A DNA stretch of 64,000 nucleotides from Thermodesulfobacteriota bacterium (GCA_964291405.2 OZ219926.1:800001-864000), one strand, 5' to 3'; shown: positions 1-36,065, counted from the first letter of the stretch. Notes: a model not told the origin generated them from the letters alone. Numbers and translations are program-made.

Positions 1-1095
1 GCCTATATGTCGCCGCTGTTAAAAGCCGTTGAAACGGCCGGCATCAACGGCCTGCGACGCAAAGCCGTGCCCGCCGAGATTGGGACGGCCGATTTCTTTG
101 ACCCGGCAGAAGAACTGCGCCTTGCGTTCGCCCGGCTCATACATACCTCGCCCGAGCGGATCGCCCTTATCCCTGCGGTCAGCTATGGGATGGGTATCGC
201 GACATATAATCTCCCGCTCAGACCGGACCAGAACGTCGTGATTCCCGGCGAGGAGTTCCCGAGTAACGTCTACCCCTGGCTGGAGCAGTGCAAGCGCACG
301 CGCGCTACCTTGCGTCGAGTTGACCGGCCCCAAGAGTCGCACGCACCGGGAGCGGTCTGGAACGCAAGATTTCTCGAAGCCATCGATACCCATACTGCCG
401 TCGTCGCCCTGAGTAGTGTGCACTGGACGGATGGCACGCTCTTTGATCTGGAACAGATTGGACAGCGGGCTCGCGCTGTGGGCGCCCTGTTTATCGTGGA
501 CGGCACCCAGTCGGTCGGCGCTCTGCCGTTTGATTTCGAGCGGGTTCAGCCCGACCTTTTGGTCTGTGCCGGTTATAAGTGGCTGCTCGGCCCCTACCAG
601 TACAGCTTCGCGGCTGTCGGTGATCGCTTGCTGAACGGCGAGCCATTTGAGCACAACTGGATTAACCGCAAAGACAGTCAGAATTTCAGCGCCTTGATCA
701 ATTATCAGTCCGAATATCAACCAGGGGCGCGACGCTTTGATACCGGGGAGCGCTCAAATTTCATTATGATTCCCATGCTCTTCACGGCCCTCAAGCAGAT
801 CGGCGAATGGGGAGTGGACAATATCCAGACTTACTGCGCACGGCTGAGCGAAGAACTTGGTCAGGCCCTTGAGGGGACTCCTTACACGGTCGCGCCACCA
901 CACGAGCGCGCAGCCCACCTATTTGGTGTTCGGATTGCCGATGTCGAGCAGATCTCCGCTATTCTCGAAGCCTTACGTCAGCGCGACGTGTACGTCTCGC
1001 AGCGCGGCGCCTCTATTCGCGTGTCGCCCCATGTCTACAATACGAAGGAAGATATTATGGCGCTGGCCGAGGCACTGCGGGCAGTCGCACGCTAG
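1..1095 (+). CDS. PLP-dependent aminotransferase class V family protein (5' end probably upstream of window)
   Basis: AYMSPLL N-terminal segment, EFPSN, VDGTQSVGA, GYKWLLGP (PLP lysine) and IRVSPHVYN motifs; frame open from base 1. Confidence 0.85.
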   Translation, partial: AYMSPLLKAVETAGINGLRRKAVPAEIGTADFFDPAEELRLAFARLIHTSPERIALIPAVSYGMGIATYNLPLRPDQNVVIPGEEFPSNVYPWLEQCKRTRATLRRVDRPQESHAPGAVWNARFLEAIDTHTAVVALSSVHWTDGTLFDLEQIGQRARAVGALFIVDGTQSVGALPFDFERVQPDLLVCAGYKWLLGPYQYSFAAVGDRLLNGEPFEHNWINRKDSQNFSALINYQSEYQPGARRFDTGERSNFIMIPMLFTALKQIGEWGVDNIQTYCARLSEELGQALEGTPYTVAPPHERAAHLFGVRIADVEQISAILEALRQRDVYVSQRGASIRVSPHVYNTKEDIMALAEALRAVAR

Positions 1096-1287
1096 CCCCC
1101 ACCGATATCTTTTGATCGTGCTTGTGAGCTTGTCGGGTTTGACTATTTGGTATATGCCTCTGATTTTCTCATGGTAAATGGCCAACCGACGGGCTGGACT
1201 ACTTCTTCTCTGGAAACCCTGCCACTCTCCAAAGAAGAAAGGCGGGGAATATATGGTGGCAATATGGCGCGATTTCTGAAACGCTAG
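1096..1287 (+). pseudogene. Probable C-terminal remnant of an amidohydrolase
   Basis: Frame without a proper start reads ...ELVGFDYLVYASDF...LPLSKEERRGIYGGNMARFLKR*, resembling the amidohydrolase_2 C-terminus. Confidence 0.45.
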
Positions 1288-1349
1288 ATGGACAAATCAG
1301 GGCAAAAATTTCTCAGCAGGGACACACGTAAAGAAAGGAGAGATGAGCA

Positions 1350-1781
1350 ATGCATACGAATACGTTTCTAGCTGTAGCGATGCTCGGAGCCGCCTTGACA
1401 TGGACGGGATGCGAATTGGGAGCCGGAGATTCAGAAGTCAACGTCGAAGCCATTTCCGGCAGCAAGATGGTAGTGACAGGGATCGATGACTTCGAGTGCT
1501 TTCGCGCCGAGGTCCAGTCGGCACAGCAGCCGCCCGTGCATGTCCCCCAGGACGAAGGGGCAACAGAAAAAGTCGTCAATGGAGAGGCCACGATTCCCGT
1601 AGCTATGAGCGTCGGCGAAATCATCGTTACCAAGGTGAGGCTCACGATTCCAGAGAACTGCGGGTCGGTGAATGGGGAAATTGAATATAGAGGGGATCCC
1701 AACTCCAATGTGCACGGACCTCTCCCCTTCACCTTTATCTCTGGTGACACCCAGACCTTTCCGCGCCACACCTTCAAATAG
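1350..1781 (+). CDS. Hypothetical lipoprotein
   Basis: AAGGAG RBS, hydrophobic signal peptide, lipobox-like WTGC. Confidence 0.65.
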   Translation: MHTNTFLAVAMLGAALTWTGCELGAGDSEVNVEAISGSKMVVTGIDDFECFRAEVQSAQQPPVHVPQDEGATEKVVNGEATIPVAMSVGEIIVTKVRLTIPENCGSVNGEIEYRGDPNSNVHGPLPFTFISGDTQTFPRHTFK

Positions 1782-1890
1782 CGCCGGGTCCGACCCTATC
1801 TCTTCAGACGGTCTGGATTCGAGCCCCTTTGAGACTGACCTCTCAGCGCATCAGTGCTGGGAGGTCTCCGTCCGAGATCAGGAGACGAGT

Positions 1891-2487
1891 GTGAGTGATA
1901 CGGCGACTCGGCGAGCGGAGTGGGAAACCCGCTATCACACCGGCCACACCGCTTGGCAACGGGAAGCGGCCAACCCGGCCCTTTTCACCTGGCTGGCGCA
2001 AGGCCTGCTGCACCCGTGTCGCATACTTATTCCCGGCTGTGGGCGTTGCCATGAGGTGGTCACCCTGGCCCAGCAGGGGTTCGAGGTCACCGCCGTTGAT
2101 CTCGCCCCAGCGGCAATACACGGCGCCCAACGGTTGATTAAGAACGCGGGTGTTGCCGCGGAAGTCATTCAAGCCGACTTACTCGACTGGGATGCCCCGG
2201 CCCGCTTCGATGCAGTCTACGACCAGACCTGTCTGTGTGCCCTCGATCCCTCAACCCGCCAGGACTACGAACGCCAACTCTTCTCGTGGCTCAGGCCGGG
2301 CGGACAACTGTTTGCCCTCTTTATGCAGGCGACCAATCCGGATGGTCCTCCGTTTCCGTGCGATCTCGACACCATGCATCAGCTTTTTCAGGACGCTCGC
2401 TGGAAATGGCGGGACGCTGAGCCGCTCTCCATTCCACATCCGGCCGGACTGCACGAGTTAGGCTGTATCCTTACGCGTCGGGCCTAG
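1891..2487 (+). CDS. Thiopurine S-methyltransferase (TPMT) family SAM-dependent methyltransferase
   Basis: WETRY..GHTAW, ILIPGCG motif I, VYDQTCLCAL, GPPF; GTG start after GGAG. Confidence 0.85.
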   Translation: MSDTATRRAEWETRYHTGHTAWQREAANPALFTWLAQGLLHPCRILIPGCGRCHEVVTLAQQGFEVTAVDLAPAAIHGAQRLIKNAGVAAEVIQADLLDWDAPARFDAVYDQTCLCALDPSTRQDYERQLFSWLRPGGQLFALFMQATNPDGPPFPCDLDTMHQLFQDARWKWRDAEPLSIPHPAGLHELGCILTRRA

Positions 2488-2562
2488 CGAATCCGTTCGC
2501 CTCCTGTGACCTCTCTCAAGGCAGACTCCATCGCAGCGCGCGGGTGAAACACCAGGAGCGGA

Positions 2563-3483
2563 TTACGTGCCACCTCTTTCGTAGTACTCAAAAACACGAA
2601 AGATAATCCGCGCCGGTCTAAAATAGGAGGCGTTCTTATTAACGACTTGGCGCTTGACCGTTTGGGTCGTCCAATTGCCGAAGGCATCGTACCGATAGGT
2701 AAACATCTCGGTGTGGCGCCGCCGACCATCATCCACGTACACAATACGCTCAGTCGGATCACCGTTGTTATTGAAGTGGGTGTCCGTTCGCTCACTCAAC
2801 CGGGAGTTCGAGGCATAGACAAAAGAGACTCGGGTCACCAGGGTTCCCCGAAAATCGCGGTGGTAGACGACCTTCTTCACGAGCGTATCTGCTGCGTCAT
2901 ACCACAACTGCTCTTCAATATTTCCCTGAACATCGTAACGCGAGGCCGTACGGTTTTTCAGCTCACCGCCTGGCTGATAGGTACGAGACTCGATTTCCCA
3001 GCCATGGTCGTCATACTGAAAATTTGTTTGTTCTGTCAGCACATCCCTGGCCGAATAGGAACGCGACTCGGTCGGGGAGCCGTGGTCGGCATAGGATGAG
3101 ACAGCGCGTCCCAAAAGGCTGTTCTCCGGCCCGTAGCGCAGCACTTCTCTTTCATTTGTACGCGCGTCGTACAAAAAGACTGCACGCTCACGGAGCGTTC
3201 CATCCGGGTCATACGAGAGGCGCTCAGTGCAATTGCCACGCCGGTCAAACCGATCAGCACGAATCGGCAGTTCTGCCTGCGACTCCCACTTGTCACCCTG
3301 TTTCACTAGGTCGGCCCGAAAGATGGATAACGATCTGACGGGCCCCCGCAGTCCGAGGACGTCCCTTTCGGTCTCCGTTTGCTGTCTCGGGCCAGGAGAG
3401 CGCACGCTTTCGCAGGACAAACAGAGCAGTCCAAGGAGAAAGGCGCTGAGGAACCGATACAGGTCACGCTTGAGTCTTGGCAT
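2563..3483 (-). CDS. YD/RHS-like repeat lipoprotein
   Basis: Lipobox CLSC, LGLRGPVRS, repeated YDxxG motifs, YRYDAFGNWT near C-terminus. Confidence 0.7.
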   Translation of the reverse strand: MPRLKRDLYRFLSAFLLGLLCLSCESVRSPGPRQQTETERDVLGLRGPVRSLSIFRADLVKQGDKWESQAELPIRADRFDRRGNCTERLSYDPDGTLRERAVFLYDARTNEREVLRYGPENSLLGRAVSSYADHGSPTESRSYSARDVLTEQTNFQYDDHGWEIESRTYQPGGELKNRTASRYDVQGNIEEQLWYDAADTLVKKVVYHRDFRGTLVTRVSFVYASNSRLSERTDTHFNNNGDPTERIVYVDDGRRRHTEMFTYRYDAFGNWTTQTVKRQVVNKNASYFRPARIIFRVFEYYERGGT

Positions 3484-3563
3484 TATTTTTCTATTTTCCG
3501 TATTTGAAAAAAGTGTGGTAGATTTCATACTGCTTGCCTTAACTCAGATGAAGAGCGCTCATC

Positions 3564-4600
3564 ATGCTGTTTCGCGAACTCAACCGCAGCGCCACCAAGA
3601 CCTATCTGATTGGGTGCGAAAAAACACAGGAAGTCGCCCTCATTGACCCGGTCTTGGAAAAAACCGACCGCTATCTCGCCCTGCTCGCCTATTATGGATA
3701 TACGCTCAACAGCATCATCGATACGCACACCCACGCGGATCATTTAACGGGGAGTTGGGAGTTGCGGGATCTGACCGATGCGCCGGTGATCATGCATCGA
3801 CGAGCCCCCGCCCCGCATGTTGATATGCATGTCGAAGACGGACAACTCATCCGAGTTGGGACGCTCACCCTACACGTGCTCGCAACCCCAGGCCATACGC
3901 CTGACAGTATGTGCCTCCACGCCATGGATCGAGTGTTCACCGGCGATACCCTGTTTATCCACGGCACCGGGCGGACCGACTTTCCCGAGGGCGACCCAGG
4001 CGCCCAGTACGACAGCATCTATCATAAACTGTTTCCGCTGCCCGACAGCACGCTGGTCTTTCCCGGTCATGATTATCGGGGACATACCCAATCCACTATC
4101 GGCGAAGAAAAACAGACAAATCCACGCGTTGCCGGGCGCAGTCGCCAGGAATATGTCGATTTGATGAACAACCTCCACCTCTCACTGCCGGATAAAATTC
4201 AGGAAGTTCTCCAACCGAACCAGTCTGCCATTGAAGACCAATCCATCCAGTTTCCGAGTCTCTCGGCACTGAATGGCGTGCGCCAGCTTTCCGCCCAAGA
4301 AGTCCAAGCCCAACGGGAGAGCACTACCCCCCCGCTCTTGCTTGATGTTCGTGAGCCAGACGAGTACAGCGATGACCTTGGCCATATACCGGGCAGCATC
4401 CTCATCCCCTCAAAGAGGTGCCGGCACGGGCGGGAGAAATTGAACACCATAAAGACGGTCATATCATTGTTGTATGTCGGGCCGGAGTCCGCAGTACAAC
4501 GGCCGCCGCTATTCTTACCGGTCTTGGATTCGAGCGTGTTTCAAATCTCAAAGGGGGGATGCTGGACTGGAATGAACAACAGTTACCCATTGCGCGCTAG
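3564..4600 (+). CDS. Persulfide dioxygenase (ETHE1-like MBL fold)-rhodanese fusion, with a frameshift at about 4406-4410
   Basis: THTHADH, TPGHT, FTGDTL, GTGRTDF, PGHDY motifs; rhodanese LDVREPDEY..GHIPGS continues in the 4418-4600 frame with CRAGVRS and LKGGMLDW. Confidence 0.85.
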
Positions 4601-4660
4601 TTGGGAGAGCGTGGCGGCTCGCCCGAGATCCGACGCACACCGCGGGAAGGAGCAGACCAC

Positions 4661-6205
4661 ATGGAAGCAGCCACTCACGAAGCGTCCCCAGCAGCACCCG
4701 AAGTGAGATGGGCCAAGGTCATTGATCACACCAAATGTATTGGCTGCCATGCGTGCAGTACAGCCTGCAAATCAGAAAACCATGTCCCAGTCTCGGTCAA
4801 TCGCACCTATGTGAAATACACCGACGTGGGCACCTTCCCGAACGCTCGGCGAGCTTTTCAGGTCACCCGTTGCAATCAGTGTCAGGACGCACCCTGCACC
4901 CACGCCTGTCCGACCGCGGCCATGTACGCCCGGTCTGACGGCATTGTGGATTTTGACAAATCCATCTGTATTGGCTGCAAAGCCTGTATTGCGGCCTGTC
5001 CGTACGACGCGATCTTTATCAACCCCGAAGACCACTCGGCCGAGAAATGCAATTTTTGTGCGCATCGGATCGATATGAACCTGGAGCCGGCCTGCGTTGT
5101 GGTATGCCCGACAGAAGCGATTATGGTGGGCGACCTGAATGACTCCGGTTCAAGCGTGGCGGCAATCGTGGGCCGGGAGCCCGTTGCCGTGCGGCGTCCT
5201 GAAAAGGAAACCCACCCCAAATTATTCTACACCGGCGCCCACCAGGCTACGCTCGACCCACTGGCTGCCACACGGCCCGAAGGCGGCCTTTTTCTGTGGA
5301 GTGAGCAGGGCCGGGGAGCGCAACAGGTGACCTCAGGCCATCCGACCCGGCACAACAGCTCCGCCCAGGCCGTGCTGGCCTATGACGTGCCACACCGTGC
5401 CCCGTGGGACTGGCGGCTGAGCCTGTATACCTGGACCAAAGGACTGGCCTCGGGAGCCTATCTGATTCCAGCCTTTCTGGTGCTCTTTGGAGTGCTGAGT
5501 CCTGAGCATATGCTCTGGCAATGGCTCGCCCCGATTCTGAGCGGGATATTTCTCGCCCTCACCGGTCTGATTCTTATCGCCGATTTGGACCACCCCGAGC
5601 GCTTTATGCTGATCTTTACCCGCCCGCAGTGGAGGAGTTGGTTGGTCCGGGGCGCTTTTATCATCCTGGGTTTTGGCAGTGTTCTATTCCTCCACTTTCT
5701 GGCCACCCTCCTTGTAGGCGGAACCGCATGGCAGTCGGGCCTGATGCTGATCGGTATCCCACTTGGCGTACTGACGAGTGTGTATACCGCCTATCTCTTT
5801 GCACAATCTACTGCCCGTGACCTGTGGCAAAACCCACTCCTTCCCCTCCATTTTCTCGTCCAAACGCTTATTGCAGGAGCCGCTGCGCTCCTCCCCTGCG
5901 CGGTCTGGTGGGCACCTACCGTGGTTTCACCGGTCGCCACACTCCTGGGAGTAGCGTGCGCGCTGCATCTCCTCTTGGTGAGCGGGGAATTCACCCTGCA
6001 CCATCCCACCGTCCATGCGCATCTCGCCGCTGCCGAGATGACGAAGGGCCAATACCGGACGTATTTCTGGGGTGGCGTACTCCTCATCTCTCTCGGCCTG
6101 CTCGCGCCGTGGGCCGGCATACCAGCAGGGTGTGCGGCCCTCATTGGATTGCTGGCATATGAACACGCCTATGTTCAGGCCGGGCAAAGCGTACCGCTCG
6201 CCTAG
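4661..6205 (+). CDS. 4x[4Fe-4S] ferredoxin (NrfC/PsrB-like) fused to NrfD/PsrC-like membrane anchor
   Basis: CIGCHACSTAC, CNQCQDAPC, CIGCKACIAACP, CNFC..CVVVCP; then multiple TM helices with ADLDHPERF and SWLVRG; AAGGAG RBS. Confidence 0.9.
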   Translation: MEAATHEASPAAPEVRWAKVIDHTKCIGCHACSTACKSENHVPVSVNRTYVKYTDVGTFPNARRAFQVTRCNQCQDAPCTHACPTAAMYARSDGIVDFDKSICIGCKACIAACPYDAIFINPEDHSAEKCNFCAHRIDMNLEPACVVVCPTEAIMVGDLNDSGSSVAAIVGREPVAVRRPEKETHPKLFYTGAHQATLDPLAATRPEGGLFLWSEQGRGAQQVTSGHPTRHNSSAQAVLAYDVPHRAPWDWRLSLYTWTKGLASGAYLIPAFLVLFGVLSPEHMLWQWLAPILSGIFLALTGLILIADLDHPERFMLIFTRPQWRSWLVRGAFIILGFGSVLFLHFLATLLVGGTAWQSGLMLIGIPLGVLTSVYTAYLFAQSTARDLWQNPLLPLHFLVQTLIAGAAALLPCAVWWAPTVVSPVATLLGVACALHLLLVSGEFTLHHPTVHAHLAAAEMTKGQYRTYFWGGVLLISLGLLAPWAGIPAGCAALIGLLAYEHAYVQAGQSVPLA

Positions 6206-6216
6206 GGGACATCATC

Positions 6217-9141
6217 ATGAGTACTGAGAGACCCAATAAACGCGTGTCTGCCGCTCGTCAGGATACAGAGGCACGGGAGGAGACGTTTTATCCAGGACCA
6301 AGTCGCAATCACCTCGCGTCGTTTCCTCCCAAGGAACGCTGGGACGATTGGATTGAGTTGGACGCCCGCGCCTGGCCGCGACGCGTCGAACAACGCTCGA
6401 TGCTTGTTCCCACCACGTGTTTTAACTGCGAGTCAGCCTGCGGCCTGCTGGCCTATGTTGATCCGGAGACGCTCAGCGTCAGAAAATTCGAGGGTAATCC
6501 TGAACATCCGGCCTCACGGGGCCGGAACTGCGCCAAGGGCCCAGCCACACTCAACCAGATCAACGATCCTGACCGCATTCTCTACCCCCTGAAACGGGCG
6601 GGAAAACGTGGCGAAGGAAAGTGGCAACAGGTTTCCTGGGACGAGGCGCTCGGTGATATTGCCGGCCGCCTTCGGCGGGCGCTCCAGGAAGGCCGTCGCA
6701 ACGAAATCATGTACCACGTTGGCCGTCCTGGCGAGGATGGTTACACCGAACGCGTCCTGGCCGCCTGGGGTGTCGATGGCCACAACTCCCATACCAATAT
6801 CTGTTCGTCCGGGGCTCGCGCCGGATATCATTTTTGGATGGGTGCGGACCGCCCCAGCCCCGACCACGAACATGCCGATGTCATCCTTCTCATCAGCGCC
6901 CACCTGGAATCGGGCCATTATTTTAATCCGCACGCCCAGCGCATTATGGATGCCAAGCGGCGTGGGGCCAAGCTCATCGTCTTTGACGTCCGCCTGTCCA
7001 ATAGCGCCACCCACGCCGACCATTGGGTTGCACCCTATCCGGGAAGCGAGGCGGCCATTCTACTCGCTATAGCCAATCACCTTATTCAGACCGAACAATA
7101 CAACCGCACTTTTGTGCGTGACTGGTGGAACTGGCAGGAATATCTCCAAGAAGAGCGGCCTGACCTGGAGCCTACGTTTGAAAACTTTGAGGCCGTGCTG
7201 AAACAGCTCTATACTGAGTACAGCTTCGCCTTTGCAGCCCAGGAATCCGGGGTCAGCCCGCAGACCATTGAGGCCATCGCCACCCTGGTTGCCTCCGCTG
7301 GAACGCGACTGGCGACCCACACCTGGCGGAGTGCGTCCGCCGGAAATCTCGGCGGCTGGCAGGTGGCGCGGGCGCTGTTTTTCCTCAACGCCCTCACGGG
7401 CGCGGTAGCAACACCGGGCGGGACGTATCCCAATGCGTGGAACAAGTTTGTGCCACGGCCCATCCATACCCCACCCCATCCAGCCATGTGGAATACGCTT
7501 TCCTGGCCGGCCGAATACCCGCTGGCTATTCACGAACTGTCTTTTCTACTGCCGCATTTTCTAAAAGAAGAACGCGCCAAACTCGATGTCTATTTCACCC
7601 GTGTGTATAACCCGGTCTGGACCAATCCCGACGGGTTTTCGTGGATTGAAACCCTCAGCGATGAACAAAAAATCAGCTTGCACGTTGCCCTGACTCCAAC
7701 CTGGAACGAGAGTGCCTACTTCGCCGATTACATTCTGCCCATGGGCGTTGGTAGCGAGCGCCACGACACGCATTCCTACGAAACGCACGACGCCCAGTGG
7801 ATCGGGTTCCGTCAGCCCGTCCTGCGAGCCGCCAGAGAACGCCTCGGTCAGCCGGTGACAGATACGCGCCAGGCAAACCCAGGCGAAGTCTGGGAAGAGA
7901 ACGAGTTCTGGATCGAGTTATCCTGGCAGGTCGACCCGGATGGCTCGCTGGGGATACGCCAATATTTTGAATCCAAAGCCCACCCAGGCCAGAAGCTTAC
8001 CCTTGACGAGTATTACGGGTTTATCTTTGGGCAGTCAGTTCCAGGGCTCCCGGAACAGGCCGCCGCCCAGGGACTCTCGCCGCTGGCCTATATGCGTCGC
8101 TACGGCGCGTTTGAAATCCAAAAAAACATCGGAGCGGTCCACGCACAAACAGTCCCACCAGTTGAACTGGACAATACCCAGGTTGACCATCTGGGCCGTG
8201 TCTTCACCGCAAGCCCCAAGCCCGCCGGTCCGAATATCGTCCCCCTGCCCTCGCCGGATGGGGATACAGATGGCCGTCGCCATGTTGGCGTCAAAATAGC
8301 GAGCCGAGACGGTAACGTATATCGCGGCTTTCCAACCCCAAGCGGACGCCTTGAGTTTTATTCAAAGACCCTGAAGGACTGGGGCTGGCCGGAATACGCC
8401 CTCCCCACGTATAGCAAGAGCCATATCCATCCCGACCGGCTCACGGACGACCAAATGGTCTTGATCCCGACCTTTCGCCTACCGGTCCAGATTCACACCC
8501 GGAGCGCAAATGCCAAATGGCTGGACGAGATTGCCCACACCAACCCGCTCTGGCTGCATCCCGGTGATGCCAAGCGCCTGGGTGTAGTCACAGGAAACCT
8601 CGTCCGGGTCGAGACCGAGATCGGCTATTTTGTGCTCAAAGCCTGGGTGACAGAAGGGATTCGACCCGGCATCGTTGGCTGTAGCCACCACATGGGCCGC
8701 TGGAAGCTCGATCAGGCTGGCCAGCGTCAGATGATGGCCACGGTCGGACTCGACCGAAACGGCAGTCAGTGGCACTTGTCTCGCAAGCAGGCAGTCCACG
8801 GCTATCCGAGTGAGGATGCCGATAGCGCACGTGTCTGGTGGACGGATACCGGCGTACATCAGAATCTCACCTTTCCGGTCCACCCTGACCCGATCTCCGG
8901 CATGCACTGCTGGCACCAAGCCGTTCGCGTTCGTCCTGCCCAAAAAGGCGATCAGTATGGGGATATTCAGGTCGATACGGACAAGGCGCATACCGCGTAT
9001 AAGAAGTGGCTCGAACTGACCCGGCCGGCCAGTCAGGTCTCGCCAGACGGCTCACGGCGGCCCTACTGGATGTTACGCCCACTCAAGCCAGGCCGAGAGA
9101 ATTATCAACTGCCTGAGACGGAGCGACCGCCTAAGGACTGA
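6217..9141 (+). CDS. Molybdopterin oxidoreductase (DMSO reductase superfamily) catalytic subunit, no Tat signal
   Basis: CFNCESACG..C FS0 motif, RILYPLKR, HNSHTNICSSG, FPTPSGRLEF, C-terminal molydopterin-binding domain. Confidence 0.9.
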   Translation: MSTERPNKRVSAARQDTEAREETFYPGPSRNHLASFPPKERWDDWIELDARAWPRRVEQRSMLVPTTCFNCESACGLLAYVDPETLSVRKFEGNPEHPASRGRNCAKGPATLNQINDPDRILYPLKRAGKRGEGKWQQVSWDEALGDIAGRLRRALQEGRRNEIMYHVGRPGEDGYTERVLAAWGVDGHNSHTNICSSGARAGYHFWMGADRPSPDHEHADVILLISAHLESGHYFNPHAQRIMDAKRRGAKLIVFDVRLSNSATHADHWVAPYPGSEAAILLAIANHLIQTEQYNRTFVRDWWNWQEYLQEERPDLEPTFENFEAVLKQLYTEYSFAFAAQESGVSPQTIEAIATLVASAGTRLATHTWRSASAGNLGGWQVARALFFLNALTGAVATPGGTYPNAWNKFVPRPIHTPPHPAMWNTLSWPAEYPLAIHELSFLLPHFLKEERAKLDVYFTRVYNPVWTNPDGFSWIETLSDEQKISLHVALTPTWNESAYFADYILPMGVGSERHDTHSYETHDAQWIGFRQPVLRAARERLGQPVTDTRQANPGEVWEENEFWIELSWQVDPDGSLGIRQYFESKAHPGQKLTLDEYYGFIFGQSVPGLPEQAAAQGLSPLAYMRRYGAFEIQKNIGAVHAQTVPPVELDNTQVDHLGRVFTASPKPAGPNIVPLPSPDGDTDGRRHVGVKIASRDGNVYRGFPTPSGRLEFYSKTLKDWGWPEYALPTYSKSHIHPDRLTDDQMVLIPTFRLPVQIHTRSANAKWLDEIAHTNPLWLHPGDAKRLGVVTGNLVRVETEIGYFVLKAWVTEGIRPGIVGCSHHMGRWKLDQAGQRQMMATVGLDRNGSQWHLSRKQAVHGYPSEDADSARVWWTDTGVHQNLTFPVHPDPISGMHCWHQAVRVRPAQKGDQYGDIQVDTDKAHTAYKKWLELTRPASQVSPDGSRRPYWMLRPLKPGRENYQLPETERPPKD

Positions 9142-10913
9142 TGAAGCGCTTTCTCCCGTTTCTCGACCTCCGGGCTTACCAGCTTCGTCATCTTCCTCGG
9201 GACCTGCTCGCCAGCCCGAGCGTGACCTTTCTCGACATTCCCCAAGGCGTGGCCTATGCCATGATTGCCGGTCTTCCCCCGGCCATGGGCCTGTATGCAG
9301 CAGCCATGCCGGCCATAGTGGGCGCGCTGTTCCGCAGCTCCCGCCATGTTGTGACTGGCCCTACGAACGCCGTGAGTCTGCTGGTTGGCACCGCCGTCGC
9401 TGCCGAGGTGGCGCACGGTGGCGCGAGTCCCATGACCGTCGGAGTCACCCTGGCCTTTATGGTTGGGGTTGTCCAATTTCTCGCCGGGCTACTGCGACTC
9501 GACGCGCTCGCCGATTATATCTCACAGCCGGTTGTCCGTGGGTATATCTCAGGAGCCGCCGTCCTGATTCTGATCGGCCAGCTTCCCAATGCAACCGGCA
9601 CGGTTCGCGTTGTCGGCAATCCCATCCAGATGATCGGCGGCTGGCTGTCTTCGCTCTCGGAAGTCCAACTGCTCGCCGTCCTTTTCACCCTCGGCACAAT
9701 TGCCTGTGTCCTATATCTGCGTCACTTTTATCCCCGTCTGCCAGCCGCCATTCTCGCCCTGGGGCTCAGCATCGTTGTGGCACGCGTCTTTCAGTTGTCT
9801 GACGCCGGGCTCCAACTAGTTGCCGACCTCGCCCCTCTGCCAGCCGGTCTGCCGCCGTTCACCGTGCCGCACCTGGACCAGTGGGCGAGCCTGCTCCCGA
9901 TGGCACTTGCCTGTGCTGTCCTGTCCCTGGTTGAGTCCAGTTCTGTGGCCCGTACGCTTGCGACCAAGTCGGGGCAGCGACTTGATATGGCGGCCGAATT
10001 TTCGGGCCAGGGACTGGCAAATATCGCTGCCGCTTTCTCGGGCGGCTACCCGGTCAGCGGCAGTTTGGCCCGTTCAACCTTGAATCAGCAAGCTGGAGCA
10101 CAGAGCCGTCTGTCGGCGCTGTTTTGCGGACTGTTGATGCTGGCCGTGCTGCTCTTTCTCGGACCCGTGGTCAATCAGACTCCGATTGCCAGTCTGGCCG
10201 GTCTGTTGTTCGTCTTAGCCTCGGATCTCATCGACAGGGATCGTATTCGTATGATACTGCGCGGTACCCGGGGCGACCGGGTGGCATTTCTCACCACGCT
10301 CGTCGGGACGTGGCTCGTACCGCTCGATCAAGCCATTTATATTGGCGTCGGGATCAGTATTCTCCTCTTTTTACGTCGCGCCCGGCTGCTCACGATCCGA
10401 GAGATGACGATCAGCGAGAAAGGCCGCTTTCGAGAGGTTGACCAAGAGCAGGAAGATCAGGGGCAACACTGTTCCGCTATTCGTATCCTCAACCTGACGG
10501 GCCCATTATTTTTTGCAGCATCAGGAGAGCTACAAGCCGCGGTTGAGCGAATAAATGTCGAGCCTCATATCCGCGTCGTTATTCTCCGCATCCGCCAGAC
10601 GCAGGGCCTGGACATCACCATCGCCAGCCTACTCGAATCCAGCCAACGTCAGTTGGAGAGCTCCGGCAAAACCCTCCTCGTCCTGGGTCTGCGTCCCGAC
10701 GCCATGCAGCTATTTGAAAAAACCGGTATCGCTACGCGTATCGGGCCGACAAATCTCTTTCCGGCCCAATCCGGCTGGTTTACCGCCATGGAGGCCGCTC
10801 TCCGCCGCGCCCTCGCGCTGGCAGGAGGGCATAGCTGCGGCACGCACTGTCCGTTTGCCGCATATCTCACCGCCCAAGAGGCACTTCGTGGTAATCCCGC
10901 AGCATCACATTGA
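9141..10913 (+). CDS. SulP family anion (sulfate) permease with STAS domain
   Basis: PQGVAYAMIAGLPPAMGLY, GPT, GSLARS, GPLFFA; start overlaps upstream stop. Confidence 0.92.
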   Translation: MKRFLPFLDLRAYQLRHLPRDLLASPSVTFLDIPQGVAYAMIAGLPPAMGLYAAAMPAIVGALFRSSRHVVTGPTNAVSLLVGTAVAAEVAHGGASPMTVGVTLAFMVGVVQFLAGLLRLDALADYISQPVVRGYISGAAVLILIGQLPNATGTVRVVGNPIQMIGGWLSSLSEVQLLAVLFTLGTIACVLYLRHFYPRLPAAILALGLSIVVARVFQLSDAGLQLVADLAPLPAGLPPFTVPHLDQWASLLPMALACAVLSLVESSSVARTLATKSGQRLDMAAEFSGQGLANIAAAFSGGYPVSGSLARSTLNQQAGAQSRLSALFCGLLMLAVLLFLGPVVNQTPIASLAGLLFVLASDLIDRDRIRMILRGTRGDRVAFLTTLVGTWLVPLDQAIYIGVGISILLFLRRARLLTIREMTISEKGRFREVDQEQEDQGQHCSAIRILNLTGPLFFAASGELQAAVERINVEPHIRVVILRIRQTQGLDITIASLLESSQRQLESSGKTLLVLGLRPDAMQLFEKTGIATRIGPTNLFPAQSGWFTAMEAALRRALALAGGHSCGTHCPFAAYLTAQEALRGNPAASH

Positions 10914-11057
10914 CAGAAGGCAGACCTATCTGAAAACCCTCAGTCCCGGTCGCAGGGCAACCTCCGTTCCAAAATCCCCTTGCCTTGGCCTCTGCGTCTG
11001 GTTACGTTGATGCCGTTTTGTAGGAGGGGTCCGTACCCAGGGGAAGGATGTCACCGG

Positions 11058-12443
11058 ATGTCGCAGTACGTTGAAGGACCAGACGCAGGTCTTGTTGTTG
11101 AAGACCATGCCCAACTCATCGAATACTTCTTTGACGCTGCAAAGCCCCGAGCAGACTGGCGTATTGGCACAGAGTACGAACTGCTCGGCGTGTCACGTCG
11201 GAGCGGTCGTGCCGCGCGCTACTCCGGTCGACGCGGCATTGAGTATATCTTGAGCCGATTGGCAGACTCCCTGGAATGGGAACCCCAGGAAGAAGAAGGC
11301 CGTATTATCGCCCTCCAGGGCGAGCGCGCCAATATCGCCCTTGAACCCGGTGCTCAGCTCGAACTCTCCGGCGAACAGTGCGAAACTGTCCATTGTGCGG
11401 ACAAAGAACTTCGTCGCCATCTCAAGCACCTGCTACCCATTGCGGACGAATTGGACATTGACTTCGTGAACTTGGGAGTCCAGCCGGTCAGCCCGCTCGA
11501 CGACATCCAGTGGATTCCCAAAACGCGCTATCAGATCATGGCCCCGTATATGGAGAAGGTCGGCACGCTGGGACACCGCATGATGAAGCAGACCGCTTCC
11601 ATTCAGGTCAATTTCGACTTCAGCGATGAAGCCGACGCTATGCTGAAGTTTAAGGCCAGCATGGGCCTCGTGCCCATCCTGTCTGCCATGTTTGCCAACT
11701 CCCCGATTTCAGATGGCAGTCTGAACGGTTTTATGACCATGCGCGGCCACGTCTGGACTGCAACGGACAAACGCCGGTGTGGCCTGCTGCCTTTTGCCTT
11801 TGCGGACGCTCCGACATTTGAAGACTATGCCGAATACGCGCTGAATATTCCCATGTATTTCATTGTGCGCAAGGGTCAGTGGATCAATATGACCCATATG
11901 TCCTTTCGCCAATTTTTGGAGGAGGGACATGAAGGCGAACGCCCCACCCTGGAAGACTGGAGCATTCACCTGACAACCCTTTTTCCGGAAGTGCGGATCA
12001 AAAAATACCTGGAGATCCGCTGCTTCGACAACCAGCCATTCGAATACATGCTGGCCGTCCCGGCCCTCACCAAGGGCATCTTCTTTGATACCGACCCCCT
12101 GCTGGCCGCCTGGGATCTGGTCAAAAAATGGAGTTGGGACGAACGCCTCGAAGCCTATCATCAGGCCCATCGCCAGGCCCTGGGCGCACGTGTGCGGGGC
12201 ATCCGCCTGCTCGATCTGGCCAAAGAACTGGTAACGATTGCCTGGGAGGGCCTGGGACGGCATAACGACTGCAACGAGGCCGGCGCAAATGAGACCATCT
12301 ATCTTGAGCGACTACGTGATGAGATCGACAAAGGCCAATGTCCAGCCTATCGCGTGATTGAAGAGTGGATGACCCACTGGAACTATGACGCCAAACGCCT
12401 CGTTGACGGCACGGCCTACCGGCTGCCGGATGAGGACGAATAA
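11058..12443 (+). CDS. gshA: Glutamate--cysteine ligase (GCS2/plant-type)
   Basis: IGTEYE, LEPGAQLELSG, MMKQTASIQVNFD, AMFANSP, HLTTLFPEVRIKKYLEIR. Confidence 0.88.
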   Translation: MSQYVEGPDAGLVVEDHAQLIEYFFDAAKPRADWRIGTEYELLGVSRRSGRAARYSGRRGIEYILSRLADSLEWEPQEEEGRIIALQGERANIALEPGAQLELSGEQCETVHCADKELRRHLKHLLPIADELDIDFVNLGVQPVSPLDDIQWIPKTRYQIMAPYMEKVGTLGHRMMKQTASIQVNFDFSDEADAMLKFKASMGLVPILSAMFANSPISDGSLNGFMTMRGHVWTATDKRRCGLLPFAFADAPTFEDYAEYALNIPMYFIVRKGQWINMTHMSFRQFLEEGHEGERPTLEDWSIHLTTLFPEVRIKKYLEIRCFDNQPFEYMLAVPALTKGIFFDTDPLLAAWDLVKKWSWDERLEAYHQAHRQALGARVRGIRLLDLAKELVTIAWEGLGRHNDCNEAGANETIYLERLRDEIDKGQCPAYRVIEEWMTHWNYDAKRLVDGTAYRLPDEDE

Positions 12444-12528
12444 GCAGTAGCCCCTCCCTCAACACCGCTTGCCTCTCCCCACCACCCTGCCGAGGACCGC
12501 GGCATAACGGCCTTACCCGCTCTTGAGG

Positions 12529-14250
12529 TTACACCGAGCCGTCAACGCGTACGGTCAGAATATCAACGTTGTGATACTGTTGGTGTCGTACAGATGAGGC
12601 GAAGTGGCGCAGCAAACGTAGCGAGATTTCACGCTCGTTTGGCGTTTCCACGTGTTCTCCGAGCAAGGCCATGTGGTCTTCAAGGTTTTCCTCGCCAATC
12701 GCCGCCATAAACTCCAACTCCACGGCACCGCCGTCCTGACGCGCGATCACGTGCAAACGGCGTCCCGCGTGAGTCGCCGAGTCCTCCCGTTGTTGCACCA
12801 GACTCAGCATCGCTTCCTCGCCGATCAAACCCAGGCGTTGGGTCGCTTCTGTGCTCCACCTCAGTCGGGCGGCACACTCGCTCAGGAAAGCCTCAAGCTG
12901 CGGCAAGCTCTCGATTGCCAACTCCATTTCAAGATGTCTGCGGCGGGGGCTGGTCAACTCCATGAATGCGGTTAATCCCACCACCATGAGCCCCCCCGCG
13001 GTGATGCCGTCGCTCAGGAGCAGTTCCCAGGCCCCGCTCAGGTAGTCGGGGAAAATGGCCTGATACTGGAAGCCCACCCCAACCCAGAACGACACGCCGG
13101 TCACCAGCGCTTTACGATAATCGCTCCCTCCTTGGAGAATAAGTTGCATCCCCTGATTCAGTATGGGTCCAAACAGAATAATGAGATAGGCGGCAGCCAC
13201 CGGACTTGGAATGGCGATCAACACGGCCATCACCTTCGGCAGGAACGCCAAGACGAAAAAGACGACGCCGATGCATACCCCGACACGACGCGCTGCCACA
13301 CCGGTCAACTCCACAAACGGCGCACTTGATGGAGCAGTCCCACTCGGTATCGTCCCAGCGATACCACACAGCAGATTACCCAAACCGACGGTGGCAACCG
13401 CACCCTGGACCGAGCGGAGATCAGTCGCCCGCCGTCTGCGCCACGAGACCCGCTGAGTAGCAACGGCATGGCCGAGGGTCCCGGTCGTTCCGATTAGTGC
13501 CACAAACAGGAACCCCGGCAGGAGAGACCAGAAGGCGGGACTAAACGTCAGCCCCACCCCTGGCCAAGCATTCGAAGGAAAACCGACCCAGGGCGCGGCT
13601 AATATCTGCCCGGTATCGTACAGGCCAAAAGGCGCGGCCACCGCGCAGCCTAGCGCAATCCCAATAAGCGGCGCCCATGGTCGCCATGCCGCTGAGGCCC
13701 GTAGCGAGAGCGCTAAAGCCACGGCAAAGGTGACCACCCCACTCGTCGGGGCCGCAGCCCATGGCGTCCCTTCCGGCACCTCGTTCAGCATCCGAAAGAC
13801 TGCTGGCATGATGGAAACAGGTATCAGGGCGAGAATCGTCCCGGTCACGACCGGCGTGATGAAACGCCGCAGCAAGGAGAGACGGGTGGCCAGCGCAAAC
13901 TGAAATATCGAGGCCACAATAAGCAGGGTGGCCATCAGGGACGGGCCGCCTTCAACGAGCGCCGTGATACATACGCCGATGAAGGCACTGCTGGTCACCA
14001 TGGGGAGCACATATCCGGAGCCAAAGCGCCCGATGCGGAAAACCTGCAATACCGATGTCGCCGCATTCACCGCAAACAGCGCAAAGATGCTCCAGGACAG
14101 ATAGGTGTCGTCCTGATTCGCCGCCCGCATGATAATAGTCGGAATGAGTACCAGGCCGGGACACATGATCATCGCCCGCTGAAAGCTGAGCCCAAAGGCG
14201 AGCGTATACGGTGGGCGTTCATCAGGTTCGTAGAGGAGAGAAGGCATCAT
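12529..14250 (-). CDS. NCS2 (xanthine/uracil) family permease with C-terminal soluble extension
   Basis: N-terminal YEPDERPP, TPVVTG, many TM helices, then about 140 aa hydrophilic tail (EEAM..L, HQQYHNVDILTVRV). Confidence 0.8.
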   Translation of the reverse strand: MMPSLLYEPDERPPYTLAFGLSFQRAMIMCPGLVLIPTIIMRAANQDDTYLSWSIFALFAVNAATSVLQVFRIGRFGSGYVLPMVTSSAFIGVCITALVEGGPSLMATLLIVASIFQFALATRLSLLRRFITPVVTGTILALIPVSIMPAVFRMLNEVPEGTPWAAAPTSGVVTFAVALALSLRASAAWRPWAPLIGIALGCAVAAPFGLYDTGQILAAPWVGFPSNAWPGVGLTFSPAFWSLLPGFLFVALIGTTGTLGHAVATQRVSWRRRRATDLRSVQGAVATVGLGNLLCGIAGTIPSGTAPSSAPFVELTGVAARRVGVCIGVVFFVLAFLPKVMAVLIAIPSPVAAAYLIILFGPILNQGMQLILQGGSDYRKALVTGVSFWVGVGFQYQAIFPDYLSGAWELLLSDGITAGGLMVVGLTAFMELTSPRRRHLEMELAIESLPQLEAFLSECAARLRWSTEATQRLGLIGEEAMLSLVQQREDSATHAGRRLHVIARQDGGAVELEFMAAIGEENLEDHMALLGEHVETPNEREISLRLLRHFASSVRHQQYHNVDILTVRVDGSV

Positions 14251-14498
14251 TCACCCTCATTCCATGCATAGTCTCGTCCCAGCCGGCCTAACGCAGGGCC
14301 GGTGTAATGAACTTGGCACAAACATCACTTTCGCTGAGACGTGTCTTTTCCATGGCTAGCTTACCCATATTCATCATATCTCACCCCCATACGCCAGCAC
14401 AGCGTCTCCCCATCTAACCCCCATCCCCTTTTCTGTTTCCCCTCCCCGCGTTTCGTGTTATGAAGCCGGTACACAACGATTGAAATAAGGAGGGTCGT

Positions 14499-15467
14499 AT
14501 GGATATTCCCAAAGACAAGCTCCTCTGGATTTATGAGCGTATGCAGCTCATCCGGGTGTTTGAAACCAGGGTCAGTACCGAGTTTGGGAAGGGAAAGATC
14601 CCAGGCTTCGTGCATCTCTATGCCGGGGAAGAAGCGGTCGCGGTCGGGATCTGTGCCAATCTCACGGACGCTGACTATATGACCTCTACCCATCGCGGAC
14701 ACGGGCACTGTGTGGCAAAAGGGGTGGACGTACAGGGCATGATGGCCGAACTGTTCGGCAAAGCCACGGGGATTTGCAAGGGCAAGGGCGGCTCCATGCA
14801 TATCGCCGATATGGACAAGGGTATGCTGGGAGCCAACGGGATTGTCGGCGGCGGCCCGCCGCTCGCCTGCGGGTCCGGCCTGACCGCCAAAACCAATGGC
14901 ACCGACCAGGTGACCATCTGCTTCTTTGGCGATGGAGCCTCAGAGCAAGGCACCTTGCACGAGAGCCTCAACCTGGCCGCAATCTGGAAGCTGCCTATTA
15001 TTTTTGTGGCCGAGAATAACGGCTATGCCGAGTCGACGCCGGCGCATTATCATTGCAGCGTCGAGAATATCGCCGACCGCGCCGCAGCGTACAACATGCC
15101 GGGCGTCACCATAGACGGGAACGACCTGTTTGCCGTGTATGAATCGGCGCATGAGGCCGTTGCGCGCGCCCGGGCCGGACAGGGCCCGAGCCTGCTGGAG
15201 TGCAAGACCTATCGTCACCACGGCCATTTTGAAGGCGATGCGCAGACCTATAAAATCGCGGAAGAAAACGAAAAATACCGTACCGAACTCGATCCGATCA
15301 AGCGCTTTAAAGACGCCGTCCTGCCCCGTGGCCTTATATCCGAAGACGAGTTGGCGGCAATCGATCAACGGGTCAACGGCGCGATTGACGAAGCCGTCAC
15401 ATTCGCGGAAGACAGCCCCTTCCCCGAGGTCCAGGAAACCTTCACTGATGTGTATGTGAGTTATTAG
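14499..15467 (+). CDS. acoA: Acetoin/2-oxoacid dehydrogenase E1 alpha
   Basis: IPGFVHLYAGEEA, STHRGHGHC, GKGGSMH, FFGDGA..ENN TPP motif. Confidence 0.85.
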   Translation: MDIPKDKLLWIYERMQLIRVFETRVSTEFGKGKIPGFVHLYAGEEAVAVGICANLTDADYMTSTHRGHGHCVAKGVDVQGMMAELFGKATGICKGKGGSMHIADMDKGMLGANGIVGGGPPLACGSGLTAKTNGTDQVTICFFGDGASEQGTLHESLNLAAIWKLPIIFVAENNGYAESTPAHYHCSVENIADRAAAYNMPGVTIDGNDLFAVYESAHEAVARARAGQGPSLLECKTYRHHGHFEGDAQTYKIAEENEKYRTELDPIKRFKDAVLPRGLISEDELAAIDQRVNGAIDEAVTFAEDSPFPEVQETFTDVYVSY

Positions 15468-35213: not shown

Positions 35214-36065
35214 ATGGAAGAGCAGCCCGCAGTCATCCCCCCCGTACCGCTCGCCCTTGAAGGCTCGGCCATACTCCACCAGATGTTTCGCGTACGCTGG
35301 GCGGACTGGAGGGCCGTATCCGCCAGGGCTCAGAACGAAATTCTGGACGACGCAGTGCGAGCCTTTAGCACCATGGAAGCGGAAAGCTCCGAACAAACCG
35401 GGCTCTTTTCCCTCTTGGGGCATAAGGGTGACCTCATGCTTGTCCATTTTCGACCGACCTTTGATGCTGTGAACGAGGCAGAGTTGCAGATCGCAAGGCT
35501 CGGGCTGAGCGATTTTCTTGAGCCCACGACCTCGTACGTCTCGGTGGTCGAGCTTGGGCTGTATGAAGCCTCGATCCACCTGTACCGCAGCCTGGCCGAA
35601 CAGGGCCTCCAGCCGGGCACGGCCGAATGGCGTGAGGCCGTGGAGAAAGAGCTCGCACAAAAGCGCGAAGCGATGGCCAGTCGGGTCTGGCCGTCCATTC
35701 CGGCCCGCCGCTATCTCAGCTTCTATCCTATGGACAAGAAACGCGGCGAGGACAAAAACTGGTATCAACTTTCCATCACCGCCCGGCAGCAGATGATGCG
35801 CGAGCACGGCATGATCGGCCGTCGCTACGCCGGGCAGGTCACCCAGATCATTTCGGGCTCAATTGGTTTCGACGACTGGGAGTGGGGTGTGGACCTTTTT
35901 GCCGATGATCCCCTGGTGTTCAAAAAACTGGTCTATGAGATGCGCTTTGACGAGGCTAGCGCCGTGTATGGGCTTTTTGGGTCGTTCTATCTCGGGCTGC
36001 GTTTTCCGGCCGCGGAACTCGGCAGTCTGCTGAACGGACGTGCTCCGGCCTTTCGGCAGGAGTAA
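35214..36065 (+). CDS. hemQ: Coproheme decarboxylase / chlorite dismutase family
   Basis: LGHKGDLM, YVSVVELGLY, FYPMDKKR, WY.L..R..MM.EHG.IGR, DDWEWGV, EMRFDEASA. Confidence 0.82.
   Translation: MEEQPAVIPPVPLALEGSAILHQMFRVRWADWRAVSARAQNEILDDAVRAFSTMEAESSEQTGLFSLLGHKGDLMLVHFRPTFDAVNEAELQIARLGLSDFLEPTTSYVSVVELGLYEASIHLYRSLAEQGLQPGTAEWREAVEKELAQKREAMASRVWPSIPARRYLSFYPMDKKRGEDKNWYQLSITARQQMMREHGMIGRRYAGQVTQIISGSIGFDDWEWGVDLFADDPLVFKKLVYEMRFDEASAVYGLFGSFYLGLRFPAAELGSLLNGRAPAFRQE

Follow-up and report, generated by a model that had tools for sequence, protein, structure and literature searches.

The window that we analysed is a 64,000-nucleotide stretch of the genome of a Binatia bacterium (OZ219926.1:800001-864000; all coordinates are counted from its first letter). 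Our subject is the locus at 3564-12443, where five genes follow one another on the plus strand, as judged by open reading frame (ORF) listing and by Pfam and NCBIfam scans: a persulfide dioxygenase (PDO)-rhodanese fusion, a fused iron-sulfur (FeS)/NrfD subunit (the NrfCD fusion) and a MopB-type catalytic subunit that together make up a molybdoenzyme, a SulP anion transporter and gshA. The features of the locus are:

3504..3531, + strand: candidate sigma-70-like promoter (TTGAAA-16-CATACT), a match to the consensus only, 33 nucleotides 5' of the PDO-rhodanese start
3564..4600, + strand: ETHE1-type persulfide dioxygenase-rhodanese fusion (PRF type), by Pfam and PDB matches, read across a one-base deletion
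4661..6205, + strand: fused FeS-NrfD subunit, Fer4_11 and NrfD in one ORF, without a twin-arginine translocation (Tat) leader
6217..9141, + strand: MopB catalytic subunit of the MopB/DMSO-reductase superfamily, with molybdenum-bis(pyranopterin guanine dinucleotide) (Mo-bisPGD), 974 amino acids, by Pfam domains, without a Tat leader
9141..10913, + strand: SulP-STAS anion transporter, by Sulfate_transp and STAS matches, its start overlapping the MopB stop
10980..12443, + strand: gshA, a plant/proteobacterial-type glutamate-cysteine ligase, by its GCS2 match; first ATG at 11058

The PDO-rhodanese stop codon (4598-4600) lies 60 nucleotides before the ATG of the NrfCD fusion (4661), 11 nucleotides separate the NrfCD stop from the MopB ATG, which is preceded by GGGGA, and MopB and SulP meet in the sequence TGATG, in which the TGA of the former and the ATG of the latter share one base. 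The distance from the SulP stop to gshA is 66 nucleotides if gshA starts at a TTG, or about 145 nucleotides if it starts at its first ATG. A sequence-only reading of this DNA had described tightly coupled, co-oriented genes for the PDO-rhodanese, the NrfCD fusion, a Tat-less MopB and SulP with an overlapping stop and start, and the ORFs, domains and junctions bear it out on both counts. The promoter scan used the consensus only (9 sites versus 4.4 ± 2.3 in shuffled sequences), the terminator consensus scan of the locus gave matches at chance level only, no Rfam family matched window positions 1-15000, and the sequencing runs that contain this DNA include no RNA data set. With moderate confidence, we regard 3564-10913 as one operon for the disposal of intracellular sulfane sulfur.

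The PDO domain matches Pfam Lactamase_B (2.2e-15), and its closest solved relatives are the PDO 4ysb (8.9e-64), BpPRF (2.2e-51, over residues 2-281) and human ETHE1 (2.7e-48). While the ETHE1-type dioxygenase-rhodanese fusion proposed from the sequence alone is thus confirmed, the 380-amino-acid ORF listed for it (3564-4706) is an artefact of a missing C: it leaves the correct frame after approximately residue 282. Frame 1 carries the PDO part (3564-4409); the rhodanese part (4412-4600), with its active-site loop CRAGVRS and the true stop codon, is read in the frame that follows. The Pfam Rhodanese match (2.7e-6) spans the segment before the shift. The window is one C short in the C-run at about 4405-4410. 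All seven related Binatia loci have the extra base, with PDO-rhodanese as a single ORF of approximately 345-349 amino acids, and contigs of all four public runs, which come from four studies, show, at full depth, one C inserted behind 4405. This insertion is the sole indel across 3400-12500 in the run contigs, one of which is otherwise identical to the window. Since the missing C is present in 7/7 relatives and 4/4 runs, the PDO-rhodanese is intact in the population: the one-base shift is either a mistake of the assembly or confined to it, and the organism has an intact fusion of about 345 amino acids. The apparent overlap of the 380-amino-acid ORF with the next ORF is therefore an artefact of the frameshift as well. 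This suggests that homopolymer errors may hit other genes of this assembly.

The fused subunit is listed as an ORF at 4601-6205, with the ATG at 4661 as its likely start (514 amino acids). It combines Fer4_11 (3.2e-22) with NrfD (3.4e-17), and its NCBIfam matches are to TtrB/NrfC/DsrO-like models (1e-47 to 1e-49), all below cut-off. Its cysteine motifs – three of the CxxCxxCxxxC type from a pattern search and one more spotted by eye – correspond to a PsrB/NrfC-like set of four [4Fe-4S] clusters, and the membrane part, of approximately 7-8 helices from residue 261, is NrfD/PsrC-like. The loops of this membrane part carry seven Lys and Arg residues on the FeS-domain side versus none on the opposite side. 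MopB has the Molybdop_Fe4S4, Molybdopterin and Molydop_binding domains and the cysteine motif of the FS0 cluster at its N-terminus; its Cys196 ('TNICSS') aligns with a Cys-containing stretch of Thermus PsrA (2vpw) and Shewanella ArrA (6cz7), which we take to be the Mo-ligand region. Read by eye, the N-termini of MopB and of the NrfCD fusion carry no twin-arginine leader, and that of MopB no Sec signal either; the sole RR (residues 55-56) has no hydrophobic stretch behind it. Since Tat leaders are missing and the positive-inside count is 7 versus 0, the FeS domain and the enzyme are placed inside: the whole enzyme is predicted to face the cytoplasm, with its anchor inverted relative to PsrC. 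An inverted anchor has also been proposed for SoeC (PMC8076601; this and the other papers cited below were available to us in part). The SulP-STAS protein matches Sulfate_transp (2.5e-77) and, C-terminally, STAS (1.5e-10), and reaches 303.9 bits against TIGR00815 (cut-off 380.45).

We think it probable, if far from assured, that these proteins form one pathway in which PDO converts glutathione persulfide (GSSH) to sulfite, MopB converts sulfite to sulfate, the electrons go to quinone and the anion leaves via SulP; what we infer here is which compound the enzyme acts on, in which direction it runs and what SulP does. Going by what is known of the families, the ETHE1-type dioxygenase domain would use O2 to turn GSSH into sulfite, and the fused rhodanese would shuttle sulfane sulfur among thiosulfate, persulfides and glutathione. 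The Tat-less MopB would convert the sulfite to sulfate at its Cys-ligated Mo-bisPGD site. The two electrons would run from FS0 via the fused subunit, with its four [4Fe-4S] clusters, to quinone in the inverted NrfD-type domain, and the translationally coupled SulP-STAS would expel the anion, most simply sulfate. Oxidation of sulfite by quinone is strongly exergonic, while quinol-driven reduction of thiosulfate or polysulfide is not.

The neighbourhood of the molybdoenzyme was compared across 80 loci from other genomes: six from Binatia of the same genus (MopB 91-97% identical) and 74 non-close loci. The same-genus loci keep the whole block, that is, an aminotransferase (6/6), a TPMT-like methyltransferase (5/6), a lipoprotein gene, PDO-rhodanese, NrfCD, MopB, SulP and gshA; the aminotransferase and the methyltransferase occur once each among the 74 distant loci. 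What is conserved as a core is the pair of NrfCD fusion and Mo subunit: the fusion is found in 65 of the 74 non-close loci, and wherever both genes were found in the compared loci NrfCD comes before MopB. Around this core in the same 74 loci we find a TorD-like chaperone after it (55), a PDO-like or other metallo-beta-lactamase (MBL) gene (30), SulP after it (27), DsrE (16), TusA (15) and SQR-like genes (6), together with regulators of the ArsR (12), LysR (12) and CsoR (3) families. At least one sulfur gene is present in 45 of the 74 loci, and in 28 of the 44 that have at least 4 kb on both sides. As approximately six loci in the 4.95-Mb host genome match PDO-like or SulP queries (a rough inference from copy number), a PDO-like or SulP gene would be expected within about 19 kb of a random gene in a few percent of cases, versus the observed 45/74, a count that also includes DsrE, TusA and SQR-like genes. 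NCBIfam scans of the neighbours returned a type III SQR-like protein, DsrE2 (209.9 bits, cut-off 210), TusA, an MBL-plus-rhodanese protein and an ArsR regulator that also matches the BigR model. Among 83 of the 202 unassigned neighbour ORFs (24 loci, L063-L088), Pfam found TauE in two of the 24 loci, a rhodanese, a Na/sulfate symporter and a luciferase-like monooxygenase, and nothing pointing to arsenic, selenium or nitrogen oxides.

The arrangement of these partners varies. In Binatia an ETHE1-type PRF lies upstream of the core, Actinomycetota have a 456-amino-acid MBL-rhodanese with SQR, and in Gemmatimonadota DsrE2-TusA-MBL-rhodanese lies downstream; one operon reads SQR-MBL-NrfCD-MopB-TorD-SulP (L019). 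Plasmid pRHL3 of Rhodococcus jostii RHA1 carries a DsrE-TusA-NrfCD-MopB-Mrp/NBP35 island (L092, 213180-233969) flanked by three MBL-fold genes, two DUF202 genes, a thioredoxin and two ArsR regulators; its genes for the fused subunit and the Mo subunit bear the locus tags RHA1_RS43840/43835. The differing order and type of sulfur genes between phyla argue for a core that was recruited repeatedly next to sulfur genes, not for one inherited operon. In support of the sequence-only reading, the NrfCD-MopB core recurs in other phyla beside sulfur-oxidation genes (45/74 loci). The common product of the recurring partners, PDO among them, is sulfite or a species in equilibrium with it, and the recurrent adjacency to PDO-like/rhodanese genes, DsrE2-TusA, SQR, SulP, TauE and persulfide-type regulators supports cytoplasmic sulfite:quinone oxidation.

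Some of the same neighbours could be read as pointing to a substrate other than free sulfite, namely thiosulfate, or a persulfide or S-sulfonate bound to a carrier (rhodanese, TusA or DsrE2). We hold this to be unlikely. DsrE2/TusA genes do directly flank the core in 15-16 of the 74 loci and on pRHL3, in the window the PDO just before the core carries a fused rhodanese, and CstB is described as making thiosulfate via a protein S-sulfonate, so avoiding sulfite release (available part of PMC12934615). However, the PDO of the window is closest to the canonical, sulfite-releasing PDOs (4ysb and ETHE1) and has a single rhodanese domain like BpPRF, not the three-domain layout of CstB; neither DsrE2 nor TusA has a tblastn match in the Binatia host genome, and the fetched flanks of 29/74 loci hold none of the searched sulfur genes. 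We likewise doubt the complete route that can be built on such a substrate, in which the Mo enzyme would oxidise a bound persulfide or S-sulfonate received from rhodanese or DsrE2/TusA, with no free sulfite, electrons going to quinone and sulfate leaving by SulP. If true, this would give the cell a cytoplasmic pathway that is closed, conserves energy and differs from Sox, rDsr, sHdr and SoeABC.

Oxidation of free sulfite also has to be weighed against what is known of the relatives of MopB. Its best curated models are PhsA (196 bits, cut-off 694), DmsA/YnfE (174) and Fdh-alpha (156), all matches falling far below the cut-offs, with no SoeA model among its NCBIfam matches; the best solved relatives are Thermus PsrA (4e-32) and then ArrA (8e-31). 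The best 120 of 8000 scored database proteins are 72-94% identical to MopB, are called 'molybdopterin-dependent oxidoreductase' or 'anaerobic selenocysteine-containing dehydrogenase' by their sources and, going by source names, span Binatia, Acidobacteriota, Armatimonadota, Dormibacteraceae, Thermodesulfobacteriota and others. At least 645 species-genome stretches encode relatives of MopB, and between phyla the identity within the family is given as ≥64%. Among 50%-identity representatives the family shrinks to a few full-length rows, and the next full-length relatives are only 34-37% identical; the nearest 20 representatives in each of two look-ups include one functional name, 'thiosulfate reductase/polysulfide reductase chain A'. 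The stored homologue of MopB has generic names only, and a homologue search from the divergent member P0125 returned the same family only. On plasmids (tblastn against PLSDB) there are nine full-length relatives, the remaining matches being unrelated MopBs: relatives are carried by a Thermomicrobium roseum megaplasmid (60.5% identical), by R. jostii RHA1 pRHL3 (56%) and by haloarchaeal plasmids of Natrinema, Halomarina and Halomicrococcus (51-53%). Matches on Thioclava and Rhizobium plasmids were considered as stand-ins for SoeA and rejected, as they are 712-726-amino-acid enzymes with ferredoxin and FAD partners. Relatives in Sulfurovum (39%) and Azoarcus (33%) come with separate B and C genes and a TorD-like gene. 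In a quick maximum-likelihood tree of 39 rows, which do not include SoeA, PSRLC3, SreA, TtrA or ArrA, 16 family rows group at an SH-aLRT of 100 on a long stem. Next to them in the tree stand unnamed Psr-like proteins, the Azoarcus type among them. Salmonella PhsA, E. coli DmsA and TorZ fall across the midpoint together with six of the seven paralogues from the same genome, and the seventh paralogue likewise lies outside the family clade.

These relatives bear on the direction of the reaction. Working reductively, the Mo enzyme would face the cytoplasm and use quinol to reduce polysulfide, persulfide, thiosulfate or tetrathionate, turning sulfane sulfur into sulfide, like bacterial SreABC as first described. 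The best curated and structural matches, to PhsA and PsrA, would fit such an enzyme, as would the functional name of the nearby non-family protein and the frequency of the sulfane sulfur carriers DsrE2-TusA as neighbours (16/74 and 15/74 loci). We nevertheless judge it improbable: every match to a reductase model is far under its curated cut-off, the recurrent partners PDO, SQR and the sulfite exporter TauE are oxidative and either O2-dependent or quinone-reducing, the hosts are mostly aerobic soil and marine heterotrophs (as judged from record titles), and by established thermodynamics quinol-driven reduction is unfavourable without a proton-motive drive. A further point for the reductive reading is that the Aquifex enzyme was initially described as a sulfur reductase, its assignment to SoeABC having come later (available parts of PMC8076601 and PMC4378227).

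A substrate without sulfur – arsenite/arsenate, selenate or an S/N-oxide – appears very improbable to us. The adjacency to sulfur genes would then reflect shared regulation or chance, and SulP would bring in molybdate or another anion. ArsR-family regulators at 12/74 loci, ArrA as the second-best solved relative, the weak match of SulP to the molybdate transporter model MFS_MOT1 (1.9e-4, below cut-off) and the full-flank loci without sulfur genes could be cited for it. On the other side, neither arsenic nor selenium genes occur among the 83 scanned neighbour ORFs, the neighbouring regulator of ArsR type gives a match to the sulfite-sensing BigR model as well, regulators of the CsoR family are present too, sulfur genes recur in varied orders and types across phyla, and the family clade lies apart from DmsA and TorZ in the quick tree.

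Several observations weigh against sulfite oxidation as we propose it. SulP transporters are best known as importers. No searched sulfur gene lies near the core in 16 of the 44 full-flank loci, and kinship among the 74 loci means that the counts are not independent. The host genome has no TorD-like (PF02613) gene, which leaves Binatia without the gene that follows the core in 55/74 loci. It does encode, at a separate locus (L097, G000:C3:3984000-3988000), a 431-amino-acid SUOX-fold protein that matches SorA best (270.6 bits, cut-off 600), and this SorA-like protein could handle sulfite in the periplasm as a second route. CstB-type PDO-rhodanese fusions are described as releasing thiosulfate, not sulfite (available part of PMC12934615), so the product that the PRF offers to the Mo enzyme is not certain. 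Finally, the part of the literature that we searched holds no assay of any member of the family. We consider a module of PDO-rhodanese, NrfCD, MopB and SulP credible and comparatively well backed.

The host genome (4.95 Mb, 97.5% complete), DNA of which is present in sponge and coral metagenome runs, yields no SoxB, DsrA or AprA above cut-off. While to this extent the module does stand without Sox or Dsr, as had been suggested, Sox-related and sulfite-related genes do lie elsewhere in the genome. One locus (L096, G000:C3:3748000-3752000) encodes a 476-amino-acid cytochrome that fuses a SoxX-like (73.8 bits, cut-off 61) and a SoxA-like part (224.8 bits, cut-off 110) and adjoins a gene for a 424-amino-acid FccB/SQR-like flavoprotein; the SorA-like gene is the other case. 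The genome also has ORFs for an assimilatory-type sulfite/nitrite reductase, MsrP and a second, BicA-like SulP. The Mo enzyme is found in 10 of 15 other genomes of the same genus, in 2 of 10 other relatives and in 2 of 151 genomes of an even phylum sample (the host genome, G000, included), a patchy presence by which it behaves as an accessory module. The five same-genus genomes in which it was not found include one rated 100% complete at 4.2 Mb, and eight of the ten same-genus carriers are approximately 5 Mb in size. This suggests that the locus is an accessory island in larger genomes.

Glutamate-cysteine ligase, by contrast with the four genes before it, is not part of the module, although the sequence-only reading had counted it in. 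GshA matches GCS2 (1.1e-62) and TIGR01436 (447.8 bits, cut-off 463.15), its gene is the only gshA match in the genome, and its product makes the thiol needed by the dioxygenase. gshA is adjacent in 6/6 same-genus loci, with a SulP-gshA spacing of approximately 70 nucleotides to 1.4 kb, and in 0/74 other loci, two more distant Binatia loci included; gshB lies at C3:275693, about 535 kb away. Given that gshA is linked only within the genus and gshB lies elsewhere, gshA is a housekeeping neighbour, and it is probably transcribed on its own.

Upstream of the operon lie a class-V aminotransferase gene (7-1095), cysteine-desulfurase-like with all NCBIfam matches far below cut-off, and a gene for a TPMT-like thiol/selenium methyltransferase (1672-2487); the two could supply or methylate sulfane sulfur or sulfide. 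Between them and the operon, on the minus strand and thus divergent from it, a 321-amino-acid protein is encoded (hyp321, 2563-3528); its leader (LLCLSC) resembles that of a lipoprotein, and the xYDxxG motif recurs in it. Its gene consistently adjoins the operon in Binatia, and a 23%-identical paralogue is encoded at G000:C3:3851461. We considered this protein as a part of the module and rejected it, as it looks like a YD-repeat-like lipoprotein with no Pfam or NCBIfam match. The window from 18 to 64 kb holds housekeeping genes; a chlorite-dismutase-family protein encoded at 35214-36062, probably HemQ-like, adjoins a DAO-type FAD oxidoreductase and a Rieske protein and is unrelated to the operon. 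As to the compared loci, one Binatia metagenome-assembled genome (MAG) has two NrfCD-MopB-SulP copies on two contigs (L015 and L016, MopB 77% and 76% identical to that of the window), with PDO directly upstream in only one of them. A DUF3187 gene lies upstream of the core at three Gemmatimonadota/Longimicrobiales loci (L070, L079 and L082), and genes for a xanthine-dehydrogenase-type FAD subunit and a cytochrome b561 lie upstream at L076 and L084, the latter also having a Mo-binding subunit.

In many aerobic heterotrophs SQR and PDO are present, but no enzyme for the sulfite that results is annotated. The two-gene family could be the missing sulfite step, returning two electrons per sulfite to respiration in Acidobacteriota, Gemmatimonadota, Actinomycetota and Chloroflexota as well as in haloarchaea, where we see it. 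A sediment survey found genes for zero-valent-sulfur oxidation in 38.6% of its MAGs and known sulfite-oxidation genes in 12.1%, with SoeABC 'not detected' according to the available part of the paper (PMC12345210). Four of our family loci come from Gemmatimonadota MAGs whose isolate names contain M3, M8 or BHB10, station codes of that study, and by these names the MAGs would belong to it (PMC12345210, available part). In a KEGG-based survey, as far as its available part goes, SoeC was present only in Proteobacteria, three Clostridia and Aquificae, and so not in Actinobacteria or Chloroflexi, which carry the family of the window (PMC8076601). With the family present both in MAGs bearing the codes of a SoeABC-negative study and in phyla without a listed SoeC, standard annotation seems to miss it. 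The Binatia operon provides a clean link of the family to a canonical ETHE1-type PDO, and culturable carriers exist in the genetically tractable R. jostii RHA1 (on pRHL3), in Thermomicrobium roseum and in Natrinema.

Among known systems, the Staphylococcus aureus cst operon (SQR, CstA, CstB, TauE and CstR), the Blh/BigR operon and Burkholderia BpPRF are PDO-rhodanese systems for persulfide detoxification. The Binatia operon resembles them in that a PDO-rhodanese heads a clearance operon that ends in an anion transporter, and related loci have CsoR-type or ArsR/BigR-type regulators. It differs in that those operons get rid of sulfite or thiosulfate by export, whereas here a quinone-linked Mo enzyme is added and SulP takes the place of TauE; this enzyme, joined to a PDO-like gene here and in 30/74 related loci, could conserve electrons. 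PsrABC and PhsABC provide the best curated and solved relatives, with the same cofactor set and a Cys at the aligned ligand position. Unlike the window enzyme, however, they are Tat-exported, periplasm-facing and reductive and have three subunits, with a catalytic subunit of approximately 760 amino acids as compared to 974 in the Tat-less MopB with its fused BC partner; Salmonella PhsA also falls in a separate clade in the quick tree.

The closest counterpart appears to be the psrBC-psrA, or PSRLC3, complex of green sulfur bacteria, which was reportedly treated by Frigaard & Bryant in 2008 and by Gregersen in 2011, the sulfite-oxidation proposal being said to date from 2008. Wright 2013 described a psrBC fusion in BCA order with no Tat signal from green sulfur bacteria, Marine Group A/II, Haladaptatus, Caldilinea and Chloroflexus, and cited the proposal that in green sulfur bacteria this cytoplasmic PSR takes sulfite from Dsr and oxidises it (available part of PMC3906813). 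Elsewhere 'PSRLC3 is inferred to be sulfite oxidase' (PMC9324843, available part), or is called 'an alternative sulfite-oxidizing system' of '2 genes' (available parts of PMC6338057 and PMC5473276). Compared by architecture, the window enzyme has the same two genes, a fused FeS-NrfD subunit, BC followed by A, no Tat signal and a predicted cytoplasmic orientation, and its plasmid matches show the same spread over phyla and domains, including haloarchaea and Chloroflexi. Going by this architecture and by taxon overlap with Wright 2013, MopB would belong to a widespread, unnamed two-gene 'psrBC-psrA' (PSRLC3-type) family and would work like SoeABC. The enzyme type was therefore known before, and sulfite oxidation as its proposed function is not new in kind. 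What sets the Binatia locus apart is its setting: PSRLC3 accompanies Dsr in green sulfur bacteria, whereas here the enzyme stands with an O2-dependent PDO-rhodanese and a coupled SulP in an aerobic-type, sponge-associated Binatia genome with no DsrA found above cut-off. From SoeABC, the sulfite:quinone oxidoreductase of Allochromatium vinosum and Aquifex aeolicus, encoded in the order soeA-B-C, the complex differs in that SoeB and SoeC are separate proteins, while here B and C are fused. The two are otherwise alike in a Cys-ligated Mo subunit of approximately 110 kDa, FS0, a four-cluster FeS module and a haem-less NrfD anchor that is predicted to be inverted and to hold the enzyme towards the cytoplasm (available parts of PMC8076601 and PMC10100899), a Cys ligand and a cytoplasmic location being listed for SoeA (Table 1 of PMC10100899).

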